64,000 bases of DNA from an uncultured delta proteobacterium (GCA_963842925.1 CAWJIL010000003.1:313542-377541), one strand, 5' to 3'. Shown: positions 3,305 to 41,100, counted from the stretch's first letter. The notes: a model not told the origin generated them from the letters alone. A program made the numbers and translations.

Positions 3305-3388
3305 AGCCCCCTCGAAGGGGGCTGGAATATCCAATGTCGAATATCGATACCATGAATTTCGAAGTGATGCTTCCCAGCTTAAAGAACA
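3305..3388 (+). repeat. Repeat family R2 (GC hairpin + AT-rich inverted arms)
   Basis: AGCCCCCTCGAAGGGGGCTGGAATATCCAATGTCGAATATCGATACCATGAATTTCGAAGTGATGCTTCCCAGCTTAAAGAA. The second copy at 42223-42306 differs at only about 6 of 84 positions. Confidence 0.85.
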
Positions 3389-4659: not shown

Positions 4660-4664
4660 CCAAC

Positions 4665-5417: not shown

Positions 5418-5504
5418 AGAATCCTAGCCCAAAGAACCAGGTTTTTAATAATGGAATAAATACCCGGTCCAAAAGACCCGATTTTAATAACAAGAGGCCC
5501 AACC

Positions 5505-6308
5505 ATGCTTGAATCTAACTCCCATAAAACCATGATGTTCGAAAACAATACTTTCCGGACAAAAGACCAGGAGTTGATCCTTGAAGAACCCCTGTCATTG
5601 CGCATCGATGGCAATCCATACGCAGTTGTCATGCGAACACCTGGTGATGAGATTTTTCATGCGGCAGGGTTTTTTCTGTCCGAAGGGTTGGTCAATCATA
5701 AAGATAATTTCACCACGATTGGATACTGCACCGAAGAAGGCGTCAATGTGGTAACCGCCACACTCCAGCCAGAGCGAAAAAAAATCGTAAAAGATCTTCT
5801 GGAAAGACGCGGTTTTGTCAGTCAGACCAGCTGTGGCATCTGCGGCAAGGAGTTGATAAAGGACATTTATCAGATTGTAAAGCCAGTAGCCACAAACCTG
5901 GGTATGTCCATAAAGGACGCTGGATCGTGCTTTGGAAAACTTGTGGATACGCAGTCCTTGTACAAGACAACCCGGGGGGCCCATGCGGCAATGGTCCTGG
6001 ATAACCGTTTGAAGCCCATGGCATTTGCAGAGGACGTGGGACGGCACAACGCACTCGACAAAGCCATCGGCAAGGTTTTTATGGAGACACGGCTACACGA
6101 ATCCAGTCTGGTGGTGATGTCCTCACGCATCAGCTACGAACTTGTTCAAAAAGCGGCCAGAGCAGGACTCGAGATGATCATCGCCCTCTCCCGCCCCACG
6201 GCACTTGCCGTTGACCTGGCGTCACGGCTGAACATGACGCTGGCATGTATCGACAAAAGCGATGCCGTGATGGTTTTCTGCGGCAGTGAACGTTTTGAAC
6301 GGCGATAA
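5505..6308 (+). CDS. fdhD: Formate dehydrogenase accessory sulfurtransferase FdhD
   Basis: 267 aa. Family-typical SCGICG loop, HAA/GRHNALDK motifs, and correct length. Confidence 0.9.
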   Translation: MLESNSHKTMMFENNTFRTKDQELILEEPLSLRIDGNPYAVVMRTPGDEIFHAAGFFLSEGLVNHKDNFTTIGYCTEEGVNVVTATLQPERKKIVKDLLERRGFVSQTSCGICGKELIKDIYQIVKPVATNLGMSIKDAGSCFGKLVDTQSLYKTTRGAHAAMVLDNRLKPMAFAEDVGRHNALDKAIGKVFMETRLHESSLVVMSSRISYELVQKAARAGLEMIIALSRPTALAVDLASRLNMTLACIDKSDAVMVFCGSERFERR

Positions 6309-11819: not shown

Positions 11820-12440
11820 TTAGGGTTTTCTACGCAAGATACCAAGGGTCTTGATCATGGGTTCTTCATGGAACCGGCCTGAGGAAAGCGCGGCCCGATA
11901 TATATCATAAGGTGCCTGGCCGCCTTCTTCCGGGTTGGGAAAGATGTCATGAAACACCAGGTAACCGCCCGGCATGATGTGATGCACCCATGAGTCGTAG
12001 TCGAGACGAACGGTTTCCGCTGCATGACCGCCGTCGATAAAAACCATGGCAAGTCGGGTTTCCCAGTGTCTGGCCGCCACATGGGATCGGCAGACCAGGG
12101 GCACCACCGTGTCCAAGAGGTCAGCCTGCCGCAGGGTCTCTCTGAATGTCGTGAAAGTGTCTACCTGGAAGGTTTTAAAATCAAACAGGTCCGGATCGAA
12201 GTATTCTTCGCCGGGCTGCTGCTCTTCCGAACCCGTGTGGTGGTCGATGGTGAACAGGGTGCTGTTGGTTTCCCTGCAGGCAGCGCCGATGCAGAGGGTG
12301 GATTTGCCACAGTAGCTACCGATTTCCAGACAGGGGCCGAGTTTGCCGGCTTTCCCGGCAATGACATATAACGCCTCCCCTTCGACGGTATCCAGGAAGC
12401 CCTTGACCTGTCTCATTAATTCGCGCTGTGCCTCAATCAA
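11820..12440 (-). CDS. Class I SAM-dependent methyltransferase (Methyltransf_24-like)
   Basis: LEIGSYCGKSTLCIG SAM-binding loop and VFIDGGH motif. Overlaps the ftsK stop by 8 nt. Confidence 0.8.
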   Translation of the reverse strand: MIEAQRELMRQVKGFLDTVEGEALYVIAGKAGKLGPCLEIGSYCGKSTLCIGAACRETNSTLFTIDHHTGSEEQQPGEEYFDPDLFDFKTFQVDTFTTFRETLRQADLLDTVVPLVCRSHVAARHWETRLAMVFIDGGHAAETVRLDYDSWVHHIMPGGYLVFHDIFPNPEEGGQAPYDIYRAALSSGRFHEEPMIKTLGILRRKP

Positions 12441-14580
12441 GGTCCTCGTACCCTCTCACCAGCACCTCGCGTGCCTTGGCTCCGTCCGAAGGACCCACCA
12501 GGCCCTCCTGTTCCATGGTTTCGATAATCCGGGCAGCCCGGTTGTAGCCGATCCTGAGATGCCGCTGGACCATGGAGATCGATGCCTGACGCGTTCTGGT
12601 AATCAGTGCAACGGCTTCGTCGTATTTTTCATCGTATTCCACGTCACCGTTTTCAACAGCATCCTCCACCGGAGCCTGGATCACATCTTCCAGGTACTCG
12701 GGGGGTCGCTGTGACTTCAGAAACTCTGTAATCCTGGTGACTTCAGTTTCGGAAATGTAGGCACCGTGGATTCGTTGGAGTTTGGCAGCACCCGGTGGTA
12801 GAAACAGCATGTCCCCGTTACCCAGAAGACTCTCGGCGCCATTCATGTCGATAATCGTTCGCGAATCCGTCTTGGAAGAAACCTGGAACGTGAGCCGTGT
12901 GGGAAAATTGGCCTTGATAATGCCGGTCAGAACATCCACGGATGGTCGCTGTGTCGCGATGATCAGGTGAATACCGGCCGCCCGGGCCATCTGAGCAAGA
13001 CGGGTCAGGGCAACCTCCACGTCCCGGGATGCCACCATCATGAGATCCGCCAACTCGTCGATGATAATGACGATGTAGGGTAGTCTTTCTGGTACCTTGC
13101 CATCCTTGTCCGGTCCCTGTTTGGCCATTTTCTGGTTGTACTGATCCACATTCCGGGTTTTGTGCTCGGACAAAACTTCGTAGCGTCGCTCCATTTCCTT
13201 AACTGCCCAGAAAAGGGCATTGGTGGCTTTCTTGGCACTGGTCACCACCGGTGTAATCAGGTGCGGAATACCGTCGTACATGGAGAGCTCGATGCGTTTG
13301 GGGTCTACCATTATCAATTTAAGGTCATCCGGTGACGACTTGTAGAGAAAACCGCTGATCATGGTGTTCAGCGCAACACTCTTACCCGCTCCGGTGGCTC
13401 CGGCTATCAGCAGATGGGGCATCTGGTTCATCTTGGTTACAACGGGATTGCCCACAATGTCTTTGCCCAGACACAGCGTCAGGGGTGATTTGGATTTTTC
13501 AAACACATCGGCGACAACGATCTCCTTGAAGCGAACCGTCTCCCGCTCCGCGTTGGGAATCTCGATCCCGATAACAGCTTTTCCGGGGATCGGAGCAACA
13601 ATCCGGATGCTTGTCGCCCGCAGCGTCAATGCCAGGTCGTCTGACAAGTTGACGATCTTGTTTATTTTAACACCCGGGGCGGGCGCGTATTCGAAGGTCG
13701 TGATGACCGGGCCCGGGGTAACCGTTACCACGCTCCCATGCACACCGAAATCTTCCAGTTTCTTGGTGAGCAGTTTGGACTGCATTCTGAGATTTTCATT
13801 GTCCGCCGAAATCGGTTCCGTGTCCGGATCATCCAAGAAATTGATGGAAGGCAGCTGAAAGCTCTTGTCTCCCCGCATGAATTCAAATACTTCCTGTTTT
13901 GGCGCCGCCACCTTCTTGATGGGCTTGGGCATGGGTGCCTTGATGGTGACTTCAGGTATTTTTTGTTTTTTCTTCTCCTTGACAACCCGTGTCCGTTTTT
14001 TTGCCTTTTCTCTGCGTTCCTTCCACTTGATCAGCAGGGTTTTCATTCTTTCGGAAACCCCTTCCCATTTCCGGTAAACAAACTGGGCAAAGCGAATGAG
14101 CGAGAAGCCGGTTGTCAGAATAAACCCGATCAACCACAATAGGAACAGAATGATGATGCCGCCGGTGGGGTTGGTGTATTTGACCAGAAACGATTTCAGA
14201 GGAATTCCGATAACCCCGCCGCTGGAAAAGCGACCCCCGAAAATTGCCACAGAATCATTGTGCAAAGCCAGCAGGCTTCCGGTGGTGATGATGAGAAGCA
14301 ATCCACCCAGTGTCTTGTAGACAGCAGTTCTGTCAGGCTGCTTGCCGAAAAAATGGATACTCATGAGCAGCAGCAGCACCGGAAGCCAGAATGAGCCGAT
14401 ACCAAACAGACCGATAAGAATCCCTGCGGTATGGGCCCCGAATACCCCGAACAGGTTCTGGATATCACCAGCGGCCCGGGCATTGTTGATGGAGGGGTCG
14501 TTCGGGCTATAGCTCAAGAGACTGATCAGCGTAAAAATAACCAGAAAAAACAACACAATACCAATGATTTCTTTGCGCAT
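12433..14580 (-). CDS. ftsK: DNA translocase FtsK
   Basis: N-terminal TM helices, basic linker, motor with Walker A GATGAGKS and IIDELADL, and a gamma winged helix (MVQRHLRIGYNRAARIIE). Start at MRKEIIG (14580). Confidence 0.93.
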   Translation of the reverse strand: MRKEIIGIVLFFLVIFTLISLLSYSPNDPSINNARAAGDIQNLFGVFGAHTAGILIGLFGIGSFWLPVLLLLMSIHFFGKQPDRTAVYKTLGGLLLIITTGSLLALHNDSVAIFGGRFSSGGVIGIPLKSFLVKYTNPTGGIIILFLLWLIGFILTTGFSLIRFAQFVYRKWEGVSERMKTLLIKWKERREKAKKRTRVVKEKKKQKIPEVTIKAPMPKPIKKVAAPKQEVFEFMRGDKSFQLPSINFLDDPDTEPISADNENLRMQSKLLTKKLEDFGVHGSVVTVTPGPVITTFEYAPAPGVKINKIVNLSDDLALTLRATSIRIVAPIPGKAVIGIEIPNAERETVRFKEIVVADVFEKSKSPLTLCLGKDIVGNPVVTKMNQMPHLLIAGATGAGKSVALNTMISGFLYKSSPDDLKLIMVDPKRIELSMYDGIPHLITPVVTSAKKATNALFWAVKEMERRYEVLSEHKTRNVDQYNQKMAKQGPDKDGKVPERLPYIVIIIDELADLMMVASRDVEVALTRLAQMARAAGIHLIIATQRPSVDVLTGIIKANFPTRLTFQVSSKTDSRTIIDMNGAESLLGNGDMLFLPPGAAKLQRIHGAYISETEVTRITEFLKSQRPPEYLEDVIQAPVEDAVENGDVEYDEKYDEAVALITRTRQASISMVQRHLRIGYNRAARIIETMEQEGLVGPSDGAKAREVLVRGYEDLD

Positions 14581-17522: not shown

Positions 17523-17583
17523 AACAACCGGTGGGGGTTGGACCGGGAAAATACTGTTGAAGTTTTTACCATTTTGTCATAGA

Positions 17584-20235
17584 ATGACGCCGATGAAAAA
17601 CAGAAGCAGAAAACGATTCCTGGATCACATGGCCCTAATCGGTTTCGGTGTGGCTATTTTCTACTGGTTTATCGAAGCCTTTGTATTTGCCATGCTTCCC
17701 AATGATATCAGCTTTTCCCAGCGTCTCATCGGGCCCCATTTCAATGATCTGCTCACCCGATTCCTGGTCCTGGCCTTTTTCGCTATTTTTGGATCCCACG
17801 CGCAGTTCACCATCAACCAGCGAAAAACTGCCGAAGCCGCCATGCGTGAAAGCGAAGAAAAATACAGAACCATTATCGAAAGCATCGAGGATGGCTACTA
17901 CGAATTTGATACGGAAGGGATTTTGACATTCTGCAACAGTTCCCTGACCAAGATCCTCGAACAATCACAGCACGTCATGATCGGCAAGGATATCCATTCC
18001 ATCCTGACACAAGACAATGGCCAGATGCTGATGCAGACCTTCGAGGCTATTTCACACGGCGAGACTGCCCAGTCAAATGAACTGAACTGGTCTTTCAAAA
18101 AAATGGACGGTTCCAAAGGTTATTTTGAAACCACCCTCTCCCTGATCAAGGACCCCGATGGCAAGACAAAGGGATTCCGGGGCTTTCTGCGAGATATCAC
18201 CCGACGAAAACTGGCCGAAGCCATGTACCAGGAAAAGCTGGCCGCCGAGGCTGCCAACAGATCCAAGAGCGAGTTTTTGGCAAACATGAGCCACGAGATC
18301 CGGACCCCCTTGAATTCGATTATCGGGCTCATCGAACTTTCCCTGGACTCGGACCTGACACCCGAACAGCGAGATGACCTGAATGTTGTCATCTCTGCCG
18401 CCTATGCTCTTTTGTCACTCATCAATGATATTCTCGATTTTTCAAAAATTGAAGCAGGCAAACTCGAACTCGAGGACATTCCTTTCAAGCTCAAGGAATT
18501 TTTAGGAGAATCCCTCAGGATTGTCGCAGCCAAGGCCCATGAAAAAAATCTGGAACTGGCCTACCGTGTCGATCCGGATGTGCCGGAAACGATCGTCGGA
18601 GATCCGTCGAGAGTCCGTCAGATTGTTCTCAACCTCATAGGCAATGCTGTCAAATTTACGGACAAAGGCGAAATTGTCCTAGTGGTTGGCCCCGAAACCA
18701 GCGGGCAGGACCCATATCATCTGATTTTTTCCGTGAGGGATACCGGTATCGGAATACCCCCAAAAAAACAGGAATCGATTTTCGGTGCTTTTGCCCAGGC
18801 AGATGGAAGCACCACCCGCAAGTATGGCGGCACAGGACTGGGACTGGCGGTATCCAAACAACTGGTGACATTGATGGACGGTCGCATCTGGATTGAAAGC
18901 CCCGTGTCGTCTGAACAGATCACCTCCGGGGGGGATGCCGTGGGGCCTGGAAGCGCTTTTCATTTCACAGCCCACTTCAAACAGCCTGTGATGGGCAGCG
19001 ACGTCGCGAGCCACAAACCGAATATCGATACCAGCGATATAAAGGGGCTTGTTGTCGATGACAACCTGAGCAATCTCGAGATCATCATGGAAATGATGGA
19101 GAGCTGGCACATGTCTCCCACCGGCACCACAAGCCCTGGAGAAGCCAAGGAGATTCTCTCTGAAGCCCAGGCATCTGGAAACCCCTTTGGGCTGGTATTG
19201 ATCGACTCCGACATGCCGGAAGCGGATGGTTTTTCTTTTGCTGAATGGATCAGGGACCAAAAAAGCCTGGATTGTAAAACAATCCTGATGACCACCTCCC
19301 AGCGGGACCGGCGGCAGGTGGACATGCAAGCGTTGAACATCTCTTCGTCCATCACCAAACCGGTGCGGCCCTCGGACTTGCTGGATGCCATCATCCGTGT
19401 CGTGACGCAGCAGGAAACCAGTCAGGAAAAAGAAGCCCTCACATTAAAATCGGCCCAAGACCAGCAGATGCAACCGCTCAAGATTCTCGTGGCAGAGGAT
19501 ACACCCTTTAACCAGAAGTTCATTGCGCGTTTACTTGGCAGATGGGGCCACACGGCCATAATTGTGGGAGATGGCCGCAAGGCCGTTACAGCCATTTCCG
19601 AGGATCGCTATGACCTCATTCTCATGGATGTTCAAATGCCGGAAATGGATGGGTTTGAAGCAACCGCTCGAATACGGGAACTCGAAAAACAAAAAGGGGT
19701 GCATACCCCTATCATCGCCATGACAGCGCATGCCATGAAAGGCGATCGTGAACGGTGCCTCGAAGCGGGAATGGATGACTACGTTCCCAAGCCCATTTCT
19801 TCCGAAGCTCTCTTGAATGCCATCAGAATGCTCGTACCAGAACAGCCAGGACCCAAAAAGGAGAAAACACCCGTGATAGAGAATGTTGAGCCGGTATTCG
19901 ATAAAGATGCTCTTTTGAAAGCGTTTGACAATGACTGGGATTTTCTGAAAGAGGTCATCGACATGTTTATCGCGGATTATCCACAAATGCTAATAAATAT
20001 TGAGGATGCCATCCAGACCAAGGATGCCCCTGCCCTCCAGCGTACGGCACATGCCCTGAAGGGCATGCTGGGCAACTTTCAGGTTGAAACAGCAACTAAA
20101 AAAGCATACGCTCTTGAAAAGATGGGTGCCGAGGAAAATCTTGAACAGGCCGCAGACATCTACACACAACTTTCCATTGAACTTGACAATCTTGAAAGAA
20201 TATTTTTGGATTTGTCCAGGGAGACGATGAATTGA
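17584..20235 (+). CDS. Hybrid sensor histidine kinase (TM-PAS-HisKA-HATPase-REC-REC-HPt)
   Basis: H-box [11 protein letters not shown]. HATPase GTGLGLAVS. Two receiver domains ([22 protein letters not shown]). C-terminal HPt (AHALKG). ATG 17584 preferred over TTG 17557. Confidence 0.92.
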
Positions 20236-21263
20236 AGATACTGATCGCTGAAGACGATGGGGTTACCCGGCGCAGGTTGCAGCATTTCCTCGAAAAGTGG
20301 AACCACCAAGTCATCACCTCGGAAAACGGACTGGATGCCCTGGAGCATTTTCTTTCCAAAGATATCGACATCGTAATCACAGACTGGATGATGCCGGAAA
20401 TGGATGGCCTGGAACTGGTGGGCCATATCCGCAGCCGGGGAAGGGAAAAGCCTTATGTCTACACCATCCTCCTGACGTCAAGAGGAGACAAAGAGGATGT
20501 GGTCAAAGGATTATCCGAAGTCGGTGTGGATGATTATGTCATTAAGCCGTTTGAACCCGATGAACTGCGCGCCCGTCTCACTGTCGGGGAAAGAACCGTC
20601 GGGCTGGAGAGAACGCTCAGGGAGTACGGAGAAGGACTTGAAAAAATCGTCCAGAAACAGACCCGCCTGATCCGCCAGACACAGGAAGAAACCATTATCC
20701 GGCTCTTGACCGCTCTTGAATCGAGGGATGAAGAAACCGGCGGGCATGTCAGAAGAATCGGTCTCTACAGTGCCCACCTGGCCGAGGCTGCCGGTTGGAC
20801 CAAGCAACAGGTGGATGATATCCGTCTGGCCTCACCCATGCATGACATTGGTAAAATCGGCGTTCCAGACGCCATTCTGCAAAAAGAGGGGCCTCTCACC
20901 ACAGAAGAGTTTGAGGTGATCAAGTCACACACGACCATCGGTGGCCAGATATTGGGAGACTCTGAATTTCCCATGCTGCAATTGGCCCATGATATCGCGC
21001 TCTTTCACCATGAGAAATGGGAAGGAAAGGGTTACCCTGAAAACCGGTCAGCTGAAGAAATTCCCGAGGCAGCACGGATCGTTGCCCTGGTAGATGTTTA
21101 CGATGCCCTCAGCCAGGACAGGGTTTATCGCAAGGCCGAAGCAGAAGACGAGGTCCTCAGGAAAATGGATGAAGCCCGGGGAAGTCACTTCGATCCTTAT
21201 TTCTATGATCTTTTTATAAAATCCCTGCCGGCCTTCCGACAAATCGCCCGCGAAAACCCATAA
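20232..21263 (+). CDS. Response regulator with HD-GYP c-di-GMP phosphodiesterase domain
   Basis: REC (ITDWMMPEMDG, IKPF) plus HD-GYP (HDIGKIGVPD, HHEKWEGKGYP). The TTG start overlaps the kinase stop (TTGA). Confidence 0.9.
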   Translation: MKILIAEDDGVTRRRLQHFLEKWNHQVITSENGLDALEHFLSKDIDIVITDWMMPEMDGLELVGHIRSRGREKPYVYTILLTSRGDKEDVVKGLSEVGVDDYVIKPFEPDELRARLTVGERTVGLERTLREYGEGLEKIVQKQTRLIRQTQEETIIRLLTALESRDEETGGHVRRIGLYSAHLAEAAGWTKQQVDDIRLASPMHDIGKIGVPDAILQKEGPLTTEEFEVIKSHTTIGGQILGDSEFPMLQLAHDIALFHHEKWEGKGYPENRSAEEIPEAARIVALVDVYDALSQDRVYRKAEAEDEVLRKMDEARGSHFDPYFYDLFIKSLPAFRQIARENP

Positions 21264-21302
21264 AAGTAGGCAGTCAGTTTATCACCAACGATAAGAGTGA
21301 GG

Positions 21303-21431
21303 AAATCCGAATATCGAATGCTCAAATAACAAAAACAGTCCACGGGATTTTACCTTGTACTATTTGTTTCGATCATTTGCACTTGTGTCATTGGGTATTA
21401 TTTAGAATTTCGAATTTCGTGCTTCGGATTT
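21303..21431 (+). repeat. MITE-like element R3 with terminal inverted repeats AAATCCGAA..CGAAAT / ATTTCG..TTCGGATTT
   Basis: Left end AAATCCGAATATCGAATGCTCAAAT. Right end GAATTTCGAATTTCGTGCTTCGGATTT. The same ends occur at 34560-34762. Confidence 0.7.
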
Positions 21432-21444
21432 AAATGATTTTATC

Positions 21445-22674
21445 ATGCCTGAAAAAAGAACATATTTCATCGTTGATGACGATCGGGTCTTTATTAAGTT
21501 TCTCACCAGGTATCTGGCTTCGGACTTATTGACCATCGCATCCAGCACCTCCAGTTCCGGTGCCCTCCAGGAAATCAAACGCCTGAAACCGGATTGCCTT
21601 ATCCTCGACATCATGATGCCTGATATCGACGGTCTTGAACTGTGCATGCAGGTGAGAGCCGAACCCGCCCTGGACAACACCAAAATTGTCGTTGTCTCTG
21701 GCAAAACGTATGAAATTGATCGAAAAAGGGCCTTTGACATGGGCGCCGATGGTTATATTGTCAAACCGGTGGCTCCCGATAAAATTGCGGGACAGATCCA
21801 GCGCATCGTGGAAGATCGCGTGGAAATGACCTTCTGGGGTGTCAGAGGTACCTTGCCAGTTCCCGGACGGGATACCATTCGATACGGTGGCAATACGAGC
21901 TGTATAAGTCTTGAGTTTCCAAAAGGAAGCCTCTTTGTCTTCGATGCCGGGACAGGCATCAAATCCCTGTCGGATCACCTCGAAACCCAGAACCGTTCTC
22001 AGATCCATGCCAAGATATTTATCTCTCATCCCCATTGGGACCACATCAATGCCCTGCCCTTTTTCACCCCTTTGTACAAGCAGGGCAATGAATTCGAGAT
22101 TATGGGACCGGCCCATGGAGATATCTCCATCCGGGAACTGATTTCCGGACAGATGGATGGTGTTTATTTCCCTATTGAAATCAAGGAATTCGGAGCTACC
22201 GTATCCTTTCAGAACCTGAAGGAAGGACTTGTTTCCATCGACGGCATCAAGGTCCAGACAATTCTGCTCAATCACCCGGGACATTGCCTGGGGTACCGGG
22301 TCGACTACAAGGACCGCTCCATCTGCTACATCACCGACAATGAATTGTTTCCCAAATCCAGCCGCTTTTACAACAGCGCCTACATCAAAAAATTGACGGC
22401 CTTCATCCGCAATACAGATGCATTGATCGCCGATTGCACCTATAGCGAGGATGAGTACGCTCAAAAAATCCGCTGGGGGCATTCATCCGTCACGGAAGTG
22501 GTCCATCTGGCACATCGTGCCAGGGTGGGTACCCTCTACATGTTCCACCATGACCCTGGGCAGACAGATGCCGCCATCGACACAAAAAGCGACCAGGCCC
22601 AGGCTCTGCTGAACGAATTGAATTCCTCCACCGTCTGTATCACCCCCATGGAAAAACAGCAATTTATGGTATAA
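21445..22674 (+). CDS. Response regulator receiver fused to metallo-beta-lactamase-fold hydrolase
   Basis: REC (FIVDDD, ILDIMMPDIDG, VKP) followed by an MBL fold (ISHPHWDHINALPFF, later HHD). Confidence 0.85.
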   Translation: MPEKRTYFIVDDDRVFIKFLTRYLASDLLTIASSTSSSGALQEIKRLKPDCLILDIMMPDIDGLELCMQVRAEPALDNTKIVVVSGKTYEIDRKRAFDMGADGYIVKPVAPDKIAGQIQRIVEDRVEMTFWGVRGTLPVPGRDTIRYGGNTSCISLEFPKGSLFVFDAGTGIKSLSDHLETQNRSQIHAKIFISHPHWDHINALPFFTPLYKQGNEFEIMGPAHGDISIRELISGQMDGVYFPIEIKEFGATVSFQNLKEGLVSIDGIKVQTILLNHPGHCLGYRVDYKDRSICYITDNELFPKSSRFYNSAYIKKLTAFIRNTDALIADCTYSEDEYAQKIRWGHSSVTEVVHLAHRARVGTLYMFHHDPGQTDAAIDTKSDQAQALLNELNSSTVCITPMEKQQFMV

Positions 22675-23001: not shown

Positions 23002-23190
23002 TTAGGTTTCTTCAACGGTAATTGCGTCTTCTTCACACACTTCCACGCAACTCTCACAACCCAAACATTCTTCTGCATTCACGGGTGATGATTTTTCATC
23101 GACCATTTCAAAAACTTCGGTAGGACAGACATCGACACATTCTTCACAGCCCACACATTTACCTTCATCAACAGTAGGTACAAAAGCCAT
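23002..23190 (-). CDS. 2x[4Fe-4S] ferredoxin
   Basis: 62 aa with CVGCEECVDVCP and CLGCESCVEVC cluster motifs. Confidence 0.85.
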   Translation of the reverse strand: MAFVPTVDEGKCVGCEECVDVCPTEVFEMVDEKSSPVNAEECLGCESCVEVCEEDAITVEET

Positions 23191-23328: not shown

Positions 23329-24315
23329 TTAAGGTTCAATACAGGCGATCAGGGTATTCACCTCCCCAGGGGCGTCCCTGTTACCAGGGGCATTTCCCTC
23401 AACAAACCGTGCCAATAGAGATTGCGGGGCAATATCCGGCAGCAGGTAGAGTTTCATGGAAAGGGGGTCCGTGGTTTCTGCAGGATAGATATCCAGCAAC
23501 CCGGAATCGCGGAGAAGAGACACGGGCATATGCACCAGTTTTTTGCAATAATCCATCAGGTCCTGTGGTTTATCTTTCTCCGTTGTCGTATCCATTTGGA
23601 CAGCCGGGACCGTCGCCACCAAGGTCAACGTTTCAATATCCGCTACATGCTCCTGTATCAAGGTCAGCACCGAAGCAGCGGTTGTCACCAGGGGTCCTTG
23701 TACGCGGCCATGGGAAAGCATGACCCGGGACCAGGCCTTCAGACGATCTAAAATCATATACTGAAACGGATCCTCATGCTCCCCTGATTGAAGAGGTATG
23801 GTGGTCCTGTCCAAAGAACGTTCATCACCCCTGAGTTCCCGGTACAGGTTTCTTTCCATGACGTCCTGCTGCTGCATTTGATGGAAGAGCCACTGGTTAT
23901 GAGCATCAAATTCCTGGGCCATCTGAAGAAAGATGCGCGCCCGGAGAAGGCTTTCCTGCGGCGTCGCATCAGGGGAAACCGGCCGTCCGGCTGCCCGGAT
24001 GTCCTGAGTTATCTGCGAAACCGATGACGACTCAAAAAACGGAACCCTGTCCTGGTAAGCCTTTAAAAAGGCGGCTGCGCCATTGCCATGGCTCCGGGCC
24101 CAACTTTCAGTTTCGGCCAGAATCTTATCCAAAGTTCGGGAAGTATCCAGGTCCGGCATCTGTACATCCAAAAAACCCTGGGCAGCCCATTGTGCCATGG
24201 GTTCCGGAATGTGTTTCACAGAGGACTGCAGAACAGTGAGGCCGCTGAAAAAACAGCGGATTGCATTGATGGTCGGTTCCATCACATAGGTATATGGAAA
24301 AAACAAAGGTTTCAT
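23329..24315 (-). CDS. Hypothetical protein (328 aa), translationally coupled to the CysK/CysRS-like fusion
   Basis: The ATG overlaps the upstream stop (ATGA, 24312-24315). I recognised no family. Confidence 0.6.
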   Translation of the reverse strand: MKPLFFPYTYVMEPTINAIRCFFSGLTVLQSSVKHIPEPMAQWAAQGFLDVQMPDLDTSRTLDKILAETESWARSHGNGAAAFLKAYQDRVPFFESSSVSQITQDIRAAGRPVSPDATPQESLLRARIFLQMAQEFDAHNQWLFHQMQQQDVMERNLYRELRGDERSLDRTTIPLQSGEHEDPFQYMILDRLKAWSRVMLSHGRVQGPLVTTAASVLTLIQEHVADIETLTLVATVPAVQMDTTTEKDKPQDLMDYCKKLVHMPVSLLRDSGLLDIYPAETTDPLSMKLYLLPDIAPQSLLARFVEGNAPGNRDAPGEVNTLIACIEP

Positions 24316-26594
24316 GAGATCTTTTCCCGGTCCCTGACCACAACACCCCGCAAGACAAGTTCTTTCCGTATTTGATCGGCAAGATCCCAGTTTCGCTGTT
24401 GTCTGGCCTGGTCACGTTTTTCTATAAGACGCCGGACGTCGGCATCCAAGATCTGTGTTTCAAATTCGAACAGGTTAAGAACCGTATCGATCTTTTTGAA
24501 GACGTCGATGATCTTGCCGGCATCCGACAGGTTAAGGGCCTCTTCCGCTATCAGCCGGTTGATCTTTTTGATCATCCTGAAAATGGATGCCAGTGCGGCT
24601 GAAATATTGAGATCGTCATCCATGGCATCTACAAAGCCGTGCCGAATGTCGTACAAAAGTTGATCCAGGTCCGGATAGAAAGGTCCATCGCGCAATTCAT
24701 GAAGTCTGGCAATACAGGAGTCCATTCTCTGGAGCGAATTTCCAGCGTTGACAAGTTTGGTCCGGGCAAATTGAACCGGTCTACGGTAATGACTCGAAAT
24801 CAGCCAGTACCGAATTTCCCTGCCCTTGAATCCCATGTCCATGAGATGCTGGATGGTCAATCCCTCTCCCTTTTCATCCATTTTCTTTCCATCCACGAGT
24901 ACCCGGTCACAATGAATCCAGAAACGTGCCAGGGGTTTTCCTGTCAAGGCTCCGGCGATAGCAATTTCATTTTCGTGGTGAGGAAAGGTCAATTCACGAC
25001 TGGCGGTATGAATGTCATAGCTGTCCCCCAGGTACTTCATAGACATGGTCGCACATTGGAGATGCCAGGAAGGACGCACGTTTCCCCAGTCGGTTTTAAC
25101 GTAGATCCCCCTTTTGAGTTCGGATAATTTGGATCGTTTCAGAAGCGTAAAATCCCGGGGATTATCCTTTTCGTATTCATCAAGATCCACCGTGGCCCCT
25201 ATCCGAATCTTGTCGATATCGACCCCGGACAAACGACCGTACTCCTTGAAACGCGAAATATCGAAATAGATCGAGCGCAGTTTTTCATAGGCCACACCCT
25301 TTCTGACCAGTTTCTCGGAAATCGATACCATGTCACCGGTGTGGTCGCTGGCCCTGGGGTATTTTTCGGCAGGTTTGATACCCAGCTGTTTCAAGTCATT
25401 TTTAAATTCATGAATATGCCGGCGGGTAAAATCGGATAGCTCCATACCGGCTTTTTCCGACCCCTCGATGGTTTTGTCATCCAAGTCGGTGATATTCATA
25501 ATGTGCGTCACATCATAACCGCGATAGTCGAGGTACCGTCTGAGCAGATCGGAAAAAACAAACCGGCGGCACTCGGCAAGATGAATTCTGGCATGCGCCG
25601 TCAATCCGCAGGAATACATGGTAACCTTGCCCGGCACCAGTGGTTCGAAAAGTTCCTTTTTGCGGGTCATGGTGTTAAACAGCTTCAGTTCCACCTTGTC
25701 CCTGATGGTGAAAAGCGGTGTGCTCAGATAACGTTCACCACCGTCCGGCAATATGACCACCAGGGTTCCTTCGGTCATGTTGCCGGCTTCCTCCAGAGCG
25801 ACGGCCATGGCTGCACCACTGCTCATACCCACAAAAAGACCTTCTTCCAGTGCAAGGCGTCTTGCCATCTCAAAAGCAACTTCGTCTTCGATATTGATTT
25901 TTCTGTCCAGACGGTTTTTATCGAATATTTCGGGTCGATAGGCCTCTTTCATATTTTTCAGGCCTTGAATTTTATGACCCAGATAGGGTTCGACGCCAAT
26001 AATCTCGATGCCGGGGTCATATGCTTTCATCCTGCGTGAGATACCCATAGCCGTGCCACTGGTTCCCAGTGTAACGATCACCTTGTCCACGTGCCCGTCT
26101 GTTTGATCCCATATTTCAGGTGCAGTGCCATCGTAGTGGGCCTGCCAGTTGGCATCATTATTGAACTGGTCCGTCATAAAATAGACCTGTGGATTTTCAC
26201 GCACCAGACGATACGCTTCCTCGATGGCGCCATCGGTCCCCAAATGACCGGGTGTCAGCAAAATTTCCGCACCCCTTGCCTTGAGAATCTTCCGCCGCTC
26301 CCCGCTGACGGATTCCGACATGGCCAAAAGGAGCCGGTAGCCCTTGACCGAACAAACCAGTGCAAGGCCAATACCTGTATTCCCGCTGGTGGCTTCGATG
26401 ACGGTCTTCTCCCGTGTGAGTTCTCCGGAGGCTTCCCCGTTTTCAATCATTCTCAATGCGGGTCGATCCTTGATGGACCCGCCGGGATTGAAATATTCCA
26501 GCTTGGCCAGGATCTTGACCCTGGGATTGGAATTTAGGGACCGGATTTCCACCATGGGGGTGTTACCGATACTGTCTAAAATCGATCTCTTCAT
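24312..26594 (-). CDS. Fusion protein: cysteine synthase (CysK/CysM, PLP) + cysteinyl-tRNA synthetase-like domain with degenerate HIGH/KMSKS
   Basis: aa 1-300 match the CysK/CysM pattern (GGSIKDR with Lys42, SGNTGIG, GTSGT). aa 303-760 are collinear with CysRS (LFNTMTRKKELF, MYSCG, NITDLDDK, WHLQC, FPHHENEIA). However, HIGH is HLAE (25572-25583) and KMSKS is KMDEK (24870-24884). Confidence 0.9.
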   Translation of the reverse strand: MKRSILDSIGNTPMVEIRSLNSNPRVKILAKLEYFNPGGSIKDRPALRMIENGEASGELTREKTVIEATSGNTGIGLALVCSVKGYRLLLAMSESVSGERRKILKARGAEILLTPGHLGTDGAIEEAYRLVRENPQVYFMTDQFNNDANWQAHYDGTAPEIWDQTDGHVDKVIVTLGTSGTAMGISRRMKAYDPGIEIIGVEPYLGHKIQGLKNMKEAYRPEIFDKNRLDRKINIEDEVAFEMARRLALEEGLFVGMSSGAAMAVALEEAGNMTEGTLVVILPDGGERYLSTPLFTIRDKVELKLFNTMTRKKELFEPLVPGKVTMYSCGLTAHARIHLAECRRFVFSDLLRRYLDYRGYDVTHIMNITDLDDKTIEGSEKAGMELSDFTRRHIHEFKNDLKQLGIKPAEKYPRASDHTGDMVSISEKLVRKGVAYEKLRSIYFDISRFKEYGRLSGVDIDKIRIGATVDLDEYEKDNPRDFTLLKRSKLSELKRGIYVKTDWGNVRPSWHLQCATMSMKYLGDSYDIHTASRELTFPHHENEIAIAGALTGKPLARFWIHCDRVLVDGKKMDEKGEGLTIQHLMDMGFKGREIRYWLISSHYRRPVQFARTKLVNAGNSLQRMDSCIARLHELRDGPFYPDLDQLLYDIRHGFVDAMDDDLNISAALASIFRMIKKINRLIAEEALNLSDAGKIIDVFKKIDTVLNLFEFETQILDADVRRLIEKRDQARQQRNWDLADQIRKELVLRGVVVRDREKIS

Positions 26595-27241
26595 TATTTC
26601 TCTATGGGGTTGCGAATAATGCTGTCCAATACGGCCATGATCTCCTGCTTCACACCTTCCTGCGGTCCGGAAGCATCGATGATTTTGAAGCGCTTTGGTT
26701 CCAGCCTGGCCAGTGCGAGATAGCCCTCACGAACCCGCCCATGAAAGCTCAGGGCTTCCTCTTCAAAACGCGTTTCCGTTCCGGTTCTCTGCCCGTTTTC
26801 GATCTGCCGCCAGGCGCGTTCCAGCCCTGTTTCCGGAGGAAGGTCCAGCAGAAACGTCAGCTCGGGTTTATAGCCGGCAAAGGCGAGCCCGTGGAGTTGT
26901 GTTATCAGGTCGATATCCAAACCCCTGGCATACCCCTGATAGGCAATGGTTGCGTCATAATAGCGGTCGCAGAGAACAACCTTCCCAGAGGATAGACTCG
27001 GTTTGACTATTTCGTCCAGGTGCTGCGCCCGATCGGCCATGTAGAGAAGAAGTTCCGACAGGGGATTCAAGCCTTTATTTTTGGAATCCAGGAGGATGGA
27101 CCGTATCTGTCTGCCGATATTCGAACCGCCGGGTTCTCTCGTCACGACGACGCCATGACCTTTTTGGCGAAGATGGTCACAAACGCGTTGAATCTGGGTT
27201 GTCTTGCCGGAACCTTCGATGCCTTCAAATGAAATAAACAT
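26594..27241 (-). CDS. tmk: Thymidylate kinase
   Basis: P-loop FEGIEGSGKTTQ, DRY motif, and lid region. The ATG at 27241 overlaps the upstream stop by 1 nt. Confidence 0.92.
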   Translation of the reverse strand: MFISFEGIEGSGKTTQIQRVCDHLRQKGHGVVVTREPGGSNIGRQIRSILLDSKNKGLNPLSELLLYMADRAQHLDEIVKPSLSSGKVVLCDRYYDATIAYQGYARGLDIDLITQLHGLAFAGYKPELTFLLDLPPETGLERAWRQIENGQRTGTETRFEEEALSFHGRVREGYLALARLEPKRFKIIDASGPQEGVKQEIMAVLDSIIRNPIEK

Positions 27242-28194
27242 TATGATGCTGGTTTCCCTCGGTAAAAATGTCTTCCCAGGAGCCGGTGAAAGGATGTCCA
27301 TGTCTCTCCGGGGTCTTCTTTTCCCATAAATTCCCGGATGGCCTGTACCCGGGAGTCCATTTCGTCAATGCAGTTCAGCATCACCGCCTCTATGGTCTTG
27401 GGTGGCTCCGGTGACCCCAGTTCTCTGCTGCCATGGTGGCTGATCACCATGTGCTTCAACAACAGGGCCGGTTCTTCAGGAAAGGAGGCGATGGTGCGTA
27501 TTTTTTCCTCGATCATCTGTAGGCCGATAACAATATGATTCACCAGCCTGCCCTCATCGGAGTAGTCGATACCCATATCGTAGTTGAATTCACGGGTTTT
27601 GCCGATGTCGTGAAGTAGCGCGCCCGACACGAGAAGATCCCGGTCGATGCCATTGTAATGTCCGGCGATTTTGTCAGCCAGCACCGCCATGGAAAGGGTG
27701 TGTTCCAGAAGCCCCCCGATATAGGCATGGTGCATTTTCTTGGCTGCGGGCGCCTTTTTGAATTGGGCTGTGAATGAACCATCCTCCCAGAAAGCCCTGA
27801 AAAGCGCCTTTAAATACCAGGCATCCAGGGATTCCGACAGGGCCACAATCCGTTCAAACATCTTATGGACATCCCGTTCAGTTGAAAGCATAAAATCGGA
27901 AGGATCTGATTCCTCCAAGGGAACCATTGTCATCTCCTTGATCACGACCTGGAGATTGTTCCGGTACTGGCCCACATGACCCCTGACCTTTACCACCGCT
28001 CCCGTCTCCGCTTGAGAAGCAATCTTTTCAACATTGTCCCAGACCACCCCCTTGATGCTCCCGGTTCGGTCGGACAGAACCAGATTAAGGTAATTGTTGC
28101 CATCTTTTTTCTGGGCCATGGTTTTTTCAGTCAGGACATAACAATCTGACAGAACATCGCCGGCATTTATCTGGTTGATGAATTGCTTTTTCAT
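27241..28194 (-). CDS. OB-fold + HD-domain phosphohydrolase (YhaM-like 3'-5' exoribonuclease family)
   Basis: N-terminal OB fold, and an HD domain (GGLLEHT, LLHDIGK, ISHHG). ATG 28194 overlaps the surE TGA (ATGA). Confidence 0.85.
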   Translation of the reverse strand: MKKQFINQINAGDVLSDCYVLTEKTMAQKKDGNNYLNLVLSDRTGSIKGVVWDNVEKIASQAETGAVVKVRGHVGQYRNNLQVVIKEMTMVPLEESDPSDFMLSTERDVHKMFERIVALSESLDAWYLKALFRAFWEDGSFTAQFKKAPAAKKMHHAYIGGLLEHTLSMAVLADKIAGHYNGIDRDLLVSGALLHDIGKTREFNYDMGIDYSDEGRLVNHIVIGLQMIEEKIRTIASFPEEPALLLKHMVISHHGSRELGSPEPPKTIEAVMLNCIDEMDSRVQAIREFMGKEDPGETWTSFHRLLGRHFYRGKPAS

Positions 28195-28952
28195 CGGATG
28201 CCAATATTCCACAACTTAAGCATTTGAATTGATTGATAATCAGTCATATCACACATGATGGGGGTGATGGATATATAATCTTTCGCGATGACCGCCACAT
28301 CAGAGCCCGAATCCCCGCCGGACACCTGTGCCGCAACGCCATGCCAATAATAGGCTTGTTCTCTGGGGTCAAAACGCTTTTCCATTTTTTCACAAGGCAA
28401 CGCAAGGTTTTGATTGCTGATCCGGACACCCCGGATACGTTCCATGGAAAGATCGGGAATATTGACATTCAAGAACGTACCCTCAGGCAGTCCATGTGCC
28501 ATTACCTTTTTTGCCAGATTCTCGACGAATTGTGCGGCCTGGTCATAATAGCCCGGGGTTTTCCCCATGATGGAAACCGCTATGGCCGGGATACCGTAAA
28601 AGACAGCTTCCCGGGCTGCCGCCAATGTTCCGGAATAATTGATATGGACCCCGGTATTTGCACCCGGGTTGATGCCCGAGATCATCAAATCCGGCGGCTC
28701 CTCAAGAAGTTCTACGATGGCCAGCTTGATACAGTCCGCTGGTGTTCCACTCACCGCGTATGCCTTGTCGCCATTGTTCAGAGATATTTGGCGAGACCGG
28801 ATAGGCCTTTCAAGGGTGATGGCGTGACTGATGGCGCTGCACTCCTGGTCAGGTGCCACCACAACGGTAGAGCAGGTACCTGAAAGTCGCCGGTGGAGCG
28901 CCCCGAGACCCTCGGCATAGATCCCGTCATCATTCGACAATAAAAGTTTCAT
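28191..28952 (-). CDS. surE: 5'/3'-nucleotidase SurE
   Basis: MKLLLSNDDGIYAEGL, GINPGAN, YSGT motifs. ATG 28952 preferred over TTG 28982. Confidence 0.92.
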   Translation of the reverse strand: MKLLLSNDDGIYAEGLGALHRRLSGTCSTVVVAPDQECSAISHAITLERPIRSRQISLNNGDKAYAVSGTPADCIKLAIVELLEEPPDLMISGINPGANTGVHINYSGTLAAAREAVFYGIPAIAVSIMGKTPGYYDQAAQFVENLAKKVMAHGLPEGTFLNVNIPDLSMERIRGVRISNQNLALPCEKMEKRFDPREQAYYWHGVAAQVSGGDSGSDVAVIAKDYISITPIMCDMTDYQSIQMLKLWNIGIR

Positions 28953-29167
28953 CCGTCCCTGTTTGTCCGGAGAGTCGTCCAAAGTCCTGCATCATTGCTC
29001 CTGGATATTTTAGGGCAACACCCCCCGGGAATGAACCTTCATACATCAATTGCATTGATTTGAAAAGGGCTTGGTATCGATCTTATTCTTGATTTTTTCA
29101 ATACGTTGGCTTTATATTGACTAATTTTGACAGATGCAACAGGTTTGTTTCCCAGAAAAGAACGCTC

Positions 29168-38138: not shown

Positions 38139-41100
38139 ATGGAAGGCGTGACACCCGATACATCAGGTGGTGCACGGAAGTTCCCCACCAGGTCAGTTCC
38201 TGGAAAAGAGCTTGCAGATTCCTTGGTTGAAGATATAATATATCTTCCGGGTAGAAAAGCTGTCAAAGGTATCTTAAAAATTTGGCAATACACTCAAAGG
38301 ATGGCAGGCATGAAACATGATGTTCGCTCCCGAATGAAAAACAGACTGCGCCAATGGCAGCATGACCTCGGCGCCGTCCTGGGTCGACAAATTTATTTTG
38401 GCCGTGATCTCAGCGGGGTCCCTCGGGGCTCCCTCGTTATCTTTCCGTATCTCCCCAACAGACTGTCCTGCGGGCTGACGGGGATCGTTTCCGTTAAATC
38501 GAAACAGAATTTGGGCATCCAGATCGATATCCCTGGTCTGAAAGATCACGTCCGGTCACTCGGGCAGAAAACCATCGAGCAGTCTAGCTGGGAAGAACTC
38601 AGCGGGCAAGACCACTACCTGGGTGGAAAAGTATTTCTGACATCGCTCTATGGCCAGGTTCAGCAGTTCAAACAGACGGAAGCATTCCTGCATATCTTTA
38701 CCCACAGGGATGTCCTGGAAGAACTCCTGGAACTCGCAGAAAAGATCCAGGCCGTCATCGATTCAGAATCGGCTGTACTGTCTGAACAGGTGGGCCATCT
38801 TGCACCGGTTGAAGTGGAAACCATCACGGATTCTCTCGAGATTCTGAAAGATATCCACTGGTCTCTCAAAATCGAAATTGCCGGAAACGTTCAAAAAGTC
38901 GAAAGTCTTGCTTCCTACCCTGGGGGTATGACATCCCCATTTTTTATCAGGATATTTCGGGAAATCAATGCTGTCCTCAACAGTATCGACCGCCTGGAGG
39001 TTCGTGGAAGAGATTCGGCCGGCATCTCCGTTATGCTTCTGCTGGATGCAAAAGACTGGCGAGACCTGCGCAAAATGATCGATAACGACGGGCTGCTGGA
39101 TGCCTTTTCCAGCAGATCCTCACGCAAGGTCCTGTCCAACGGCAGCATACAAATAGACCCGGCCCGGGAATCTGACCAGAAAGATCTCGTCACCGTTGTC
39201 TTCACCTACAAGATTGCCGCTGAAATAGGCGGTCTTGGAGACAACGTTTCCTATTTGCGCCATCAGATTAAAACAGACCCCATCTTCCAACGGGCGGTAA
39301 CGTTTACACCTGTCAACTACACCATATCATCCCATACACGCTGGGCTTCCGTGGGCGCTATTACCGAATCGAACTGTCATCCCGTGGACAATATACCAGA
39401 AGGAAACAACCTTGCTGCCAGGGGAATTATCCATGCCTGCCTCAATGGTGACATCGACAATTATCTGGAAATCAAAAAAGATCTCTTAAAATCGGGTACC
39501 GTCATTCAGGATGACATCTCAACCGACACCAAGGTCATCCCCCTCCAGATCCAGAAATATCTCCAGGAAGGGGCCCCGGTGGCTGAAGCGTTTCGCCGGG
39601 CTTTGAATGACTTTAAGGGCTCGCATGCCATTTCCATGCATACCAACCTGGCCCCGGGCAAACTTTTTCTGGGCCAGCGGGGCAGTGGCCAGGCTATTTT
39701 TGTCGGCCTTTCGGAAGACCGCTATATACCGGCATCGGAAGTCTACGGCTTTGTAGAAGAGACCCCTGATTACCTGAAACTGGACGGGGAAAAAATAGTT
39801 AAGGGCGAGCACGGGGATGTGCAGGGGCAGATTTTCATCCTGGACCAGAATTCATCCGGAGGCGTCGATGGTATCGATGCCATGGCCTATGACGGCTCAC
39901 CGATTGAACTCGGGGACGCTCATGTCAAACGAACGGCCATCACGCCCAGAGATATCGATCGGCAGCACTTCCCCCACTACTTCTTGAAGGAAATTTCGGA
40001 ATCCCCCGTCTCCGTTGAAAAAACACTTCAGAACCGCTGGAAGGTAACCGGAAACGAACAATACACCACTGTACTGGACAGCACCGTGTTGAATGCGTCC
40101 ATCATCGAAGCCCTGCGTAGTGACCGGATACGAAGAATCTATTTTGTCGGCCAGGGCACGGCGGGTATCGCCGCCCAAGCCTGCGCCGACATCCTCAGTT
40201 ACTACCTGAATGATTCGAAGCTTTTTATTGACGCCCTGAAAGCATCGGAACTGAGCGGTTTTAAGATGAGCGAACACGACAGACCGGACAGTATGTCGGA
40301 CACGCTGGTAATCGCCATCAGCCAGTCGGGGACAACCACCGATACCAATCGTACAGTCGATATGGTCCGTGGGCGCGGTGCCAGAACACTGGCCATCGTC
40401 AACCGCCGGGATTCCGATATTACCTTCAAAGTCGAGGGGGTCATGTACACCAGCAGTGGCCGGGATATCGAAATGTCGGTAGCCTCTACAAAAGCTTTTT
40501 ACTCACAAATCGTGGCCGGTGCGGTTCTGGGTCTCCACATGGCTGCCGCAACAGGTCGCCGGGATATCACTTTCGTAACCGAAGAAATCAAGAAGCTGCT
40601 CGAGCTGCCGGCCCATATGAAAAAGGTCCTGGGCCAGGCAAAGCTCATCGAAGGCTCCGCCCGCAGACTTGCAGCCACAAAAACCTACTGGGCTGCCGTT
40701 GGAAGCGGACCCAACAAGGCTTCTGCCGACGAAATCAGGATCAAGCTGAGCGAACTCTGCTACAAGACCATCTCCTCGGACTATGTAGAGGACAAAAAAC
40801 ATATCGACCTCTCGTCAGAGCCCTTGATAATTGTGTGTGCGGCCGGTGCCAAAAGTTCGGTCATCGGTGACATCATCAAAGACACCGCCATTTTCAAGGC
40901 TCACAAGGCAACACCTGTGGTCATCGCCGATGAAGGGGAGACCCGATTCGATCCCTATGCGGAAGATATATTCCACGTCCCGGTTACCAGCGAACACCTG
41001 GCGCCTATTTTGAACACCCTCGTGGGTCATCTCTGGGGCTATTATGCCGCCCTGGCTATCAACGAAGGATCCAGATTTCTGCACACGTTTCGTGAAGAGA

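Follow-up and report, generated by a model that had tools for sequence, protein, structure and literature searches.

Why should a cysteine synthase carry, on the same polypeptide chain, a module that resembles cysteinyl-tRNA synthetase (CysRS) from which the signatures of the ATP site are missing? The question is raised by a gene in a 64,000-nucleotide stretch of DNA from an uncultured delta proteobacterium (GCA_963842925.1, CAWJIL010000003.1:313542-377541), hereafter called the window. An earlier note, made from the sequence alone, had described the product as a single 760-residue open reading frame (ORF) in which a complete CysK/CysM-type enzyme is followed by a CysRS-like half with degenerate catalytic motifs, and had suggested that the fusion hands cysteine over to a product other than tRNA. 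The reading that we favour, tentatively and with a little less than even confidence, is a different one, namely that an active cysteine synthase is tethered to a non-aminoacylating pseudo-CysRS that couples cysteine synthesis to the status of tRNA-Cys and of cysteine.

The reading frame is continuous and joins its two halves without a separate linker domain, and ORF, Pfam and NCBIfam analyses agree on the architecture that the earlier note had proposed. Pfam recognizes PALP (aa 6-284, 1e-67), tRNA-synt_1e (aa 316-617, 8e-81), DALR_2 (aa 654-709) and CysS_C (aa 716-758), while a sequence search of the PDB returned O-acetylserine sulfhydrylases for the N-terminal half and CysRS for the C-terminal half. 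Among the NCBIfam models, the protein passes cysKM (TIGR01136; 348.3 bits versus a cutoff of 344.15) and, over its full length but marginally, cysS (TIGR00435; 373 versus 340 bits). It misses the equivalog models for cysK (309 versus 351 bits) and cysM (332 versus 394 bits), so that the N-terminal half can be assigned at the cysKM level, which does not fix O-acetylserine or O-phosphoserine as its substrate. As judged by the pyridoxal phosphate (PLP) lysine, the asparagine (TSGNT) loop, the Gly/Thr phosphate loop and the serine that contacts the PLP ring nitrogen, all of which are present, the cysteine synthase half is catalytically intact. Across 28 homologs there is no variation at the corresponding residues K42, T69-S70-G71-N72-T73, Q143, G177/T178/G180/T181 and S258/S259, the motifs SxKDR and SGNTG occur in 65 of 65 loci examined, and the TIGR01136 score is steady across the fusion family, at 348-373 bits.

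The CysRS-like half was aligned to E. coli CysRS (1li5/1u0b), whose numbering is used below, and its residues were compared between 125 canonical CysRSs and 52 fusions, clade A (Desulfobacterales type) contributing 40 and clade B (Desulfobulbales/Desulfatiglandales type) 12. The equivalents of HIGH and KMSKS fall exactly where the earlier note had placed them, as H-L-A-E and K-M-D-E-K. Beyond those changes, residues 529-535 of the window protein read HTASREL in place of the ribose-binding HGGGSDL. Eight residues that are at least 94% conserved in the canonical enzymes (H40, G226, G227, D229, M267, K269, S270 and N273) are replaced in the fusions, the loss of D229 being that of clade A, and Y33 is lost as well; together these are contacts to ATP and ribose. 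K269 and S270 of KMSKS are present in all 125 canonical enzymes and in none of the 52 fusions, and G226, likewise found in 125 of 125, is Ser or Ala in the fusions. Position 40 is His or Asn in every canonical CysRS (64 His, 61 Asn, corresponding to HIGH and HIGN; Glu in none of the 125) and E, Q, L, D or K, never His or Asn, in the fusions compared. As about half of the bona fide CysRSs are thus of the HIGN type, the fourth position of HIGH is not strictly a histidine. In the window protein G39 has in addition become Ala, and in 37 of the 40 clade A members S228 has become Arg and D229 Glu.

What replaces the lost residues differs from lineage to lineage. Across the Desulfobacterota fusions, the HIGH position reads HLGE, HPGE, DMGE, TLGE, DLSL, NPGQ or RIAD, and the KMSKS position reads KKVDE, KNMGN, SLGEE or TDFRD, or is deleted; the acidic replacement residues are not conserved beyond the window's own sub-clade. 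The doubt that the earlier note had cast on canonical aminoacyl-adenylate chemistry is thereby strengthened, since residues of the ATP site have been lost throughout the family and those in their place are not conserved between its lineages, and in the alignment the window protein has neither HIGH nor KMSKS.

In contrast, the zinc and cysteine pocket is retained. The zinc ligands C28, C209, H234 and E238 correspond to C329, C514, H539 and E543 of the window protein, as the earlier note had also said; W205 and T68 are present too, and retention of this set in clade A is at least 85-100%. Over the fusions, C28, G29, T68, W205, H206, C209 and H234 are kept in at least 90%; for E238 the figure is 85% in clade A and only 33% in clade B. 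Individual members depart from this pattern while keeping CysK. At locus L037 (JBFMBE010000051.1, 2770-5058), whose cluster contains a UniRef entry assigned to Desulfatirhabdium butyrativorans, zinc ligands have been lost (YSCG to FTTG, WHLQC to WHLQG), and at L031 and L034 C209 is replaced by Ser (WHIQS).

The six residues at the anticodon end of the module, R423, R427, W432, D436, R439 and D451, are kept in 39-40 of 40 clade A fusions and 11-12 of 12 clade B fusions. Their retention is stricter than in canonical CysRS, where position 432 is W, F or Y and position 427 is R or K. In the complex of E. coli CysRS with tRNA-Cys (1U0B), G34 is recognized by Arg427, Asp436 and Trp432 together with a water network involving Asp436 and Arg423 (PMC12684709, PMC13449415). 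With the G34-reading residues kept, tRNA-Cys is very probably still a ligand, which speaks against the non-tRNA product that had been suggested. By its residues, then, the CysRS-like half is a module that has lost the signatures of the ATP site and retained both the cysteine/zinc pocket and the residues that read the anticodon.

This module does not appear to be decaying. In a comparison of the window with one relative of 93% identity, the ratios of nonsynonymous to synonymous substitution rates (dN/dS; Table 1) point to strong purifying selection on the CysRS-like core and hence to a functional module, and the pattern of kept and lost residues suggests that it is selected for binding of cysteine and tRNA-Cys and not for binding of ATP. 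Down the family, the scores against the cysS hidden Markov model (HMM) fall through 517, 451, 382, 373, 321 and 300 bits, the lowest lying under the cutoff of 340.

Table 1. Coordinates of the fusion gene, its parts and the adjoining genes in the window, with dN/dS where calculated.
Feature	Position	Strand	dN/dS	Basis or remark
Fusion gene, CysK/CysM-type cysteine synthase + CysRS-like module	24312..26594	(-)		760 aa + stop; ORF, Pfam, NCBIfam
Cysteine synthase half, aa 1-300	25695..26594	(-)	0.058	Intact catalytic residues by sequence
CysRS-like Rossmann and connective-peptide (CP) core, aa 303-617	24744..25688	(-)	0.031	Zn/cysteine pocket kept, ATP-site signatures lost
HIGH-equivalent H-L-A-E, aa 338-341	25572..25583	(-)		Alignment to 1li5
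KMSKS-equivalent K-M-D-E-K, aa 571-575	24870..24884	(-)		Alignment to E. coli CysRS
Ribose-site motif H-T-A-S-R-E (CysRS HGGGSD), aa 529-534	24993..25010	(-)		Alignment and conservation
Stem-contact/DALR and anticodon-binding domains, aa 618-760	24315..24743	(-)	0.131	Pfam DALR_2, CysS_C
Anticodon-reading residues R727, R731, W736, D740, R743, D755	24330..24416	(-)		E. coli R423, R427, W432, D436, R439, D451
tmk, directly upstream, overlapping the fusion	26594..27301	(-)	0.099	Pfam Thymidylate_kin 1e-55; syntenic
OB-fold and HD-domain protein	27241..28212	(-)		Pfam tRNA_anti-codon and HD; syntenic
surE, first in the overlapping gene string	28191..28982	(-)		Pfam SurE 9.5e-60; syntenic
Orphan partner ORF, 328 aa	23329..24315	(-)	0.350	Start overlaps the fusion stop codon
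62-aa 2x[4Fe-4S] ferredoxin	23002..23190	(-)		After partner ORF; Pfam Fer4 families on the L001 orthologue

According to the favoured reading, the CysK half would be a working O-acetylserine or O-phosphoserine sulfhydrylase. The CysRS-like module would no longer activate cysteine with ATP and would therefore not charge tRNA, a task left to a separate canonical CysRS. Its zinc pocket would still bind cysteine or a cysteinyl moiety and its C-terminal domain would still read the GCA anticodon of tRNA-Cys, selection maintaining the module for both. As a ligand-sensing or docking module, it would then couple the output of CysK to cysteine and tRNA-Cys status, with the orphan protein and the ferredoxin encoded next to it taking part. 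If sulfide is never limiting in sulfide producers, as we reason, control should act at or after the cysteine synthase. A more specific form of this proposal, which we consider rather doubtful, makes the fusion a protein-level counterpart of the T-box, a cysteine synthase gated by its cognate tRNA. Here the pseudo-CysRS would read the anticodon of tRNA-Cys while the zinc pocket told charged from uncharged 3' ends or sensed cysteine, and the tethered cysteine synthase would be switched accordingly, possibly with the partner protein and the ferredoxin.

The proposal requires that another enzyme charge tRNA-Cys. Neither a second CysRS nor a second CysK was found in the window by tblastn with both halves, and the separate canonical cysS that the earlier note's proposal also presupposed could be located in sister clades of the family and not in the window's own sub-clade. 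At locus L060 (contig JBFMBU010000107.1), 6.5 kb separate the fusion (3128-5470) from a textbook CysRS (11863-13341) with HVGH, HGGGKDL and KMSKS in an ispD-ispF-cysS context, the GenBank accessions of the two proteins being nine apart. Assembly GCA_040755415.1 has a fusion on JBFMAZ010000117.1 and a canonical CysRS on JBFMAZ010000058.1. For two further pairs of fusion and canonical enzyme the GenBank accessions differ by 85 and 140, so that both members of each pair belong to a single genome submission. The fusions found beside a canonical CysRS are the least eroded ones (HLGN/KMSRS, HLGM/KMSQA), from which it follows that the paralog coexisted with the canonical enzyme before its ATP site eroded further. 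For the window's HLGE/KVDE sub-clade, the look-ups gave no such pair: P0015 and P0342 share no sample, and the assemblies of P0278, P0335 and P0359 are outside the list of fusion-bearing genomes. A canonical CysRS presumably charges tRNA-Cys there as well.

The phylogeny, a crude neighbour-joining tree, is in line with a paralog. Desulfobacterota CysRSs of the host type (HIGH/KMSKS) group in a clade of their own, and all fusions form one lineage that arises from HIGN-type CysRSs via an 'HIG[L/T]...KMSRS' grade, motif erosion being progressive toward the window's clade. At the base of the fusion lineage stand the standalone CysRS relatives P0126, P0128, P0131, P0133 and P0138, of about 460-510 aa, with partly eroded motifs (HIGL/KMSRS, HIGT/KMARS, HIGS/KITAE, HIGL/KLSSD). 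They may represent either a further group of CysRS-like paralogs that is not fused, or a functional CysRS of an unusual subtype. Two fusions, P0130 (768 aa) and P0122 (783 aa), have canonical or near-canonical ATP motifs; P0130 reads HIGN, HTGGIDL and KMSKS and gives the cysS score of 517 bits. These two may be truly bifunctional cysteine synthase/CysRS proteins and represent the ancestral state of the family.

A model of the fusion predicted by AlphaFold (AF2) from 72 aligned sequences has a mean predicted local distance difference test score (pLDDT) of 84.6, with both halves confident and the CysRS-like core mostly above 90, and a predicted template modelling score (pTM) of 0.60. Confidence is low at the junction (aa 286-299), in the KMSKS-equivalent loop (574-576) and in the CP insertion (465-473). 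In the model, the halves look tethered and not rigidly packed. The low-confidence junction and the pTM give no indication of a fixed substrate tunnel for the channelling of cysteine that had been suggested.

Several points weigh against the tethered-sensor reading. Close relatives, at 70% identity or more, keep the altered motifs, as H-[LVM]-[GA]-E-C-R, K-[VM]-D-E-x and T-[SA]-[SG]-R-E, and such conservation of H-x-[GA]-E and K-[VM]-D-E could mean new chemistry and not mere loss. Strong selection on cysteine- and tRNA-binding residues is also what one would expect of an active synthetase, and the fusion does score above the cysS equivalog cutoff. The look-ups located no canonical cysS in the window's sub-clade or in its genome, 64 kb of which are visible. 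The AF2 model, at its pTM of 0.60, defines no interface between the halves. That the module does not aminoacylate, that cysteine and tRNA-Cys are bound, that their binding modulates CysK, and that the partner and the ferredoxin participate is what we infer, and the sensor model leaves the roles of the partner ORF and the ferredoxin unexplained.

Could tRNA-Cys instead serve as a substrate handle, the module docking Sep-, Ser- or Cys-tRNA-Cys (Sep being O-phosphoseryl) for transformation or transfer of the aminoacyl group, by the PLP domain or in a remodelled pocket, in the manner of SepCysS, or else consuming aminoacyl-tRNA as a cyclodipeptide synthase does? Loss of ATP binding with retention of the amino-acid pocket and of tRNA recognition is the signature expected of a protein that works on a pre-activated aminoacyl-tRNA, and the cyclodipeptide synthases, whose class-I synthetase-like Rossmann fold has no ATP motifs and engages aminoacyl-tRNA, provide a precedent (PMC2922099). 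The constraint on the core and the clade-conserved S228R (37/40), E40 and D268/E270 where the ATP site used to be could mark a new catalytic center, and at Desulfobacterales-type loci a ferredoxin and an orphan protein adjoin the fusion. Cyclodipeptide synthases differ from the fusion in their TyrRS/TrpRS-like ancestry, in lacking an anticodon-binding domain and in not being joined to a biosynthetic enzyme. The invariant carboxylate-binding loop SGNTG of the CysK half argues for a free amino acid, not an ester-linked one, as the substrate. Neither SepRS nor SepCysS, nor cysE, was found among the 20 further annotated ORFs of the window or in the neighbourhoods of related loci, and Deltaproteobacteria are reported to have only degenerate SepRS-like genes (PMC8762117). 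Outside the window's sub-clade the acidic residues are not maintained, and no fixed geometry is predicted between the two active sites. On balance, we regard such a role as unlikely.

Still less probable, in our view, is that the protein remains bifunctional, CysK making cysteine and the fused CysRS, be it the only one of the cell or a second one, charging tRNA-Cys through a non-canonical ATP site. The score above the TIGR00435 cutoff, the strictly conserved cysteine pocket and anticodon residues with a dN/dS of 0.03 in the core, the fully canonical motifs of some fusions such as P0130, and the lack of a demonstrated second cysS in the window's genome would all fit this explanation. It would, however, have to dispense with K269, S270 and G226, invariant in the 125 canonical enzymes and absent from the fusions compared, and would have to accommodate HIGH and KMSKS positions that vary between fusion lineages, a KMSKS loop that is deleted in some, and zinc ligands that are lost in others (L037, L031 and L034, above). 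Near-canonical sister fusions, moreover, coexist with a textbook CysRS.

If the CysRS-like half were a structural appendage only, an oligomerization or solubility scaffold with no ligand-dependent role, the undefined inter-domain arrangement of the model would be as expected; such a role is nevertheless improbable, as the zinc ligands and six anticodon contacts are kept at about 97-100% while the ATP site drifts and dN/dS stays at 0.03. The earlier note had also considered persulfide synthesis. In 2017, Akaike et al. reportedly proposed that the lysines of the KIIK and KMSKS motifs of CysRS bind PLP for this purpose. Of these, K73 and K266 are kept, and K76 has become Glu in the window protein, with D, N, E or Q at this position across clade A. 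That the fused CysK feeds a cysteine persulfide synthase, or a tRNA-independent cysteine ligase for a low-molecular-weight thiol, is highly improbable: MshC, likewise a CysRS paralog with a repurposed cysteine pocket, is a precedent for a cysteine ligase (PMC9437257), and the intact pocket and the fusion to CysK do suggest a hand-over of cysteine, but MshC shows the opposite pattern, being ATP-dependent and reported to work without tRNA (PMC2922099) where the fusion has lost the ATP site and keeps a full anticodon-binding domain with conserved G34-reading residues, the MshC model (TIGR03447) is failed by a wide gap (178.9 bits versus a cutoff of 485.1), K269 is lost in all fusions compared, clade A has no Lys at position 76, which varies even among canonical CysRSs, and the annotated neighbours include no glycosyltransferase or thiol-pathway genes.

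Other pseudo-synthetases help to place the proposed tethered sensor. GCN2 has a HisRS-like pseudo-synthetase domain fused to a kinase and binds tRNA as a signal of amino-acid supply. It resembles the fusion in joining a pseudo-synthetase to an effector enzyme and differs in being eukaryotic, in having a kinase as its effector and in responding to many uncharged tRNAs, whereas the fusion has a metabolic effector and residues specific for the anticodon of tRNA-Cys. HisZ has no anticodon-binding domain, unlike the fusion, which keeps its anticodon-reading residues; it is also of class II, a separate subunit and engaged in the first step of its pathway, whereas the fusion is of class I, covalent and concerned with the last step. 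The likeness lies in an aminoacyl-tRNA synthetase paralog without adenylation residues that is physically coupled to a biosynthetic enzyme of its cognate amino acid: HisZ is a non-adenylating HisRS paralog that senses the end product and regulates the synthesis of histidine as a subunit, with HisG, of ATP-phosphoribosyltransferase (PMC9437257). With canonical CysRS (1LI5/1U0B), the fusion shares the domain order (Rossmann/CP, stem-contact, DALR, anticodon-binding), the zinc ligands, the pocket and the G34 residues; it differs in having lost HIGH, GGGxD and KMSKS, in its fusion to CysK and in belonging to a lineage apart from the host CysRS. CysRS* of Desulfobacterales, an additional CysRS paralog from this order, is without an anticodon-binding domain, is encoded directly downstream of selC*/selB* and presumably charges a special tRNA (Mukai 2017, PMC5389517). 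The fusion, in contrast, has an anticodon-binding domain and lies in a tmk/surE housekeeping cluster, and no tRNA gene was found in the 64-kb window.

The fusion is widespread. More than 120 clusters of a large protein database, at 70-96% identity and each about 760 aa long, show the same arrangement of four domains, and a scan of one genome per prokaryotic species returned at least 595 loci across Desulfobacterota, isolates and complete chromosomes among them. The continuous ORF and these loci together rule out an assembly or frameshift artefact, and the earlier note was right to treat the fusion as genuine. The best 80 of the at least 595 loci span Desulfobacterales (Desulfosarcina, Desulfonema, Desulfatibacillum, Desulforapulum autotrophicum and, as isolates, Desulfoluna butyratoxydans, D. 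spongiiphila and Desulfocicer vacuolatum), Desulfatiglandales, Desulfarculaceae and Desulfobulbales (Desulfopila sp. IMCC35008 with a complete genome, Desulfocapsa, Desulfofustis, Desulfobulbus). An apparent triple fusion of CysK, CysRS and the partner ORF at L038 (10980-11340, a 1172-aa frame) was rejected: masked Ns bridge two frames, and the fusion ends at its own stop codon and the partner starts at its own ATG.

Database names for these proteins are inconsistent. NCBI and JGI call window-type clusters, from Desulfobacterales or Deltaproteobacteria metagenome-assembled genomes, 'cysteine--tRNA ligase', and more eroded members (L037 type, 321 bits; MEW6259638.1) 'cysteine synthase'. The name flips within one orthologous family, depending on whether the cysS HMM cutoff is passed (373) or missed (321). 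For the fusion, 'cysteine--tRNA ligase' is probably wrong, and the misnaming can mask a missing CysRS or count CysRS twice in completeness estimates and metabolic reconstructions.

The fusion gene sits in the tightly overlapped string of surE, the OB-fold/HD gene, tmk, the fusion and the 328-aa ORF that the earlier note had outlined, with overlaps visible at the start and stop codons. Loci of the Desulfobacterales type share the gene order surE, OB/HD, tmk, fusion, orphan ORF, ferredoxin, and lptD, a NusG-family gene, HU, holB, PSP1 and metG lie nearby, a housekeeping setting. The partner ORF was found by HMM search directly 3' of the fusion in nearly all Desulfobacterales-type loci with enough flank (L001-L047, L051, L059, L062 and L065 have it), and directly upstream of the fusion in L051. 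It was not found by this search near clade B fusions. At L060, in a clade without the orphan partner, a different ORF of 224 aa (5428-6102, +) overlaps the 3' end of the fusion.

The partner proteins, of about 330 aa, are divergent, with a mean identity of 25% and P7, D137, R191, W195 and T211 invariant, and evolve at roughly ten times the rate of the fusion (dN/dS 0.35 versus 0.03). Searches of Pfam, NCBIfam and the PDB, by sequence and by profile, gave no match, and database names read only 'hypothetical protein'. For a reasonable AF2 model (pLDDT 76, pTM 0.75), Foldseek returned no relative from the PDB (best E = 2). The ferredoxin follows the partner ORF in 29 clade A loci, at 61-95% identity. 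Ahead of it lies a promoter-like site (23299-23271), from which it may also be transcribed alone; promoter and terminator scans performed no better than on shuffled sequence. Rfam returned no T-box, riboswitch or other structured RNA in the window.

Elsewhere in the window, a signalling cluster (17557-22674, +) adjoins the operon and is shared by L001-L003, the closest relatives. It encodes a hybrid histidine kinase that carries an Hpt domain and two response regulators, one with an HD-GYP-type HD domain and the other fused to a metallo-beta-lactamase fold. An ORF of 1307 aa (38139-42062, +) has only GATase_6 (about aa 397-533) and SIS (665-797) as recognized domains; it is far longer than GlmS-type proteins, and its large N- and C-terminal regions are without assignment. 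An ORF of 719 aa without a Pfam match (49821-51980, -) adjoins a gene for a eukaryotic-type Ser/Thr protein kinase (52093-52989, -).

A description of a CysK-CysRS fusion was not found in the literature, a provisional result as most subscription journals are outside full-text search. For CysRS, a 2022 review of aminoacyl-tRNA synthetase paralogs covers only CysRS* and MshC (PMC9437257), a 2022 survey of prokaryotic cysteine-encoding systems does not mention cysteine synthase or CysK (PMC8762117), and the description of CysRS* does not mention the fusion (Mukai 2017, PMC5389517). A repurposed pseudo-synthetase paralog tied to the biosynthesis of its cognate amino acid is of a general kind already known. 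Within the CysRS family, the fusion would be the third paralog, beside MshC and CysRS*, the first to have lost the ATP site yet kept the pockets for the tRNA anticodon and the amino acid, and the first to be joined in one chain with the enzyme that produces its amino acid.

Hundreds of Desulfobacterota species carry the fusion, major marine sulfate reducers among them, and the housekeeping gene cluster in which it lies suggests that it is probably the main cysteine synthase of these bacteria. Cultured hosts are available in Desulfoluna, Desulfocicer, Desulfopila and Desulforapulum, and the protein should express easily. Were the T-box-like version true, allosteric control by tRNA charging status would have been shown for a bacterial metabolic enzyme for the first time. 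The fusion raises the question of how sulfide producers, for which sulfide is never limiting, restrain the synthesis of cysteine.

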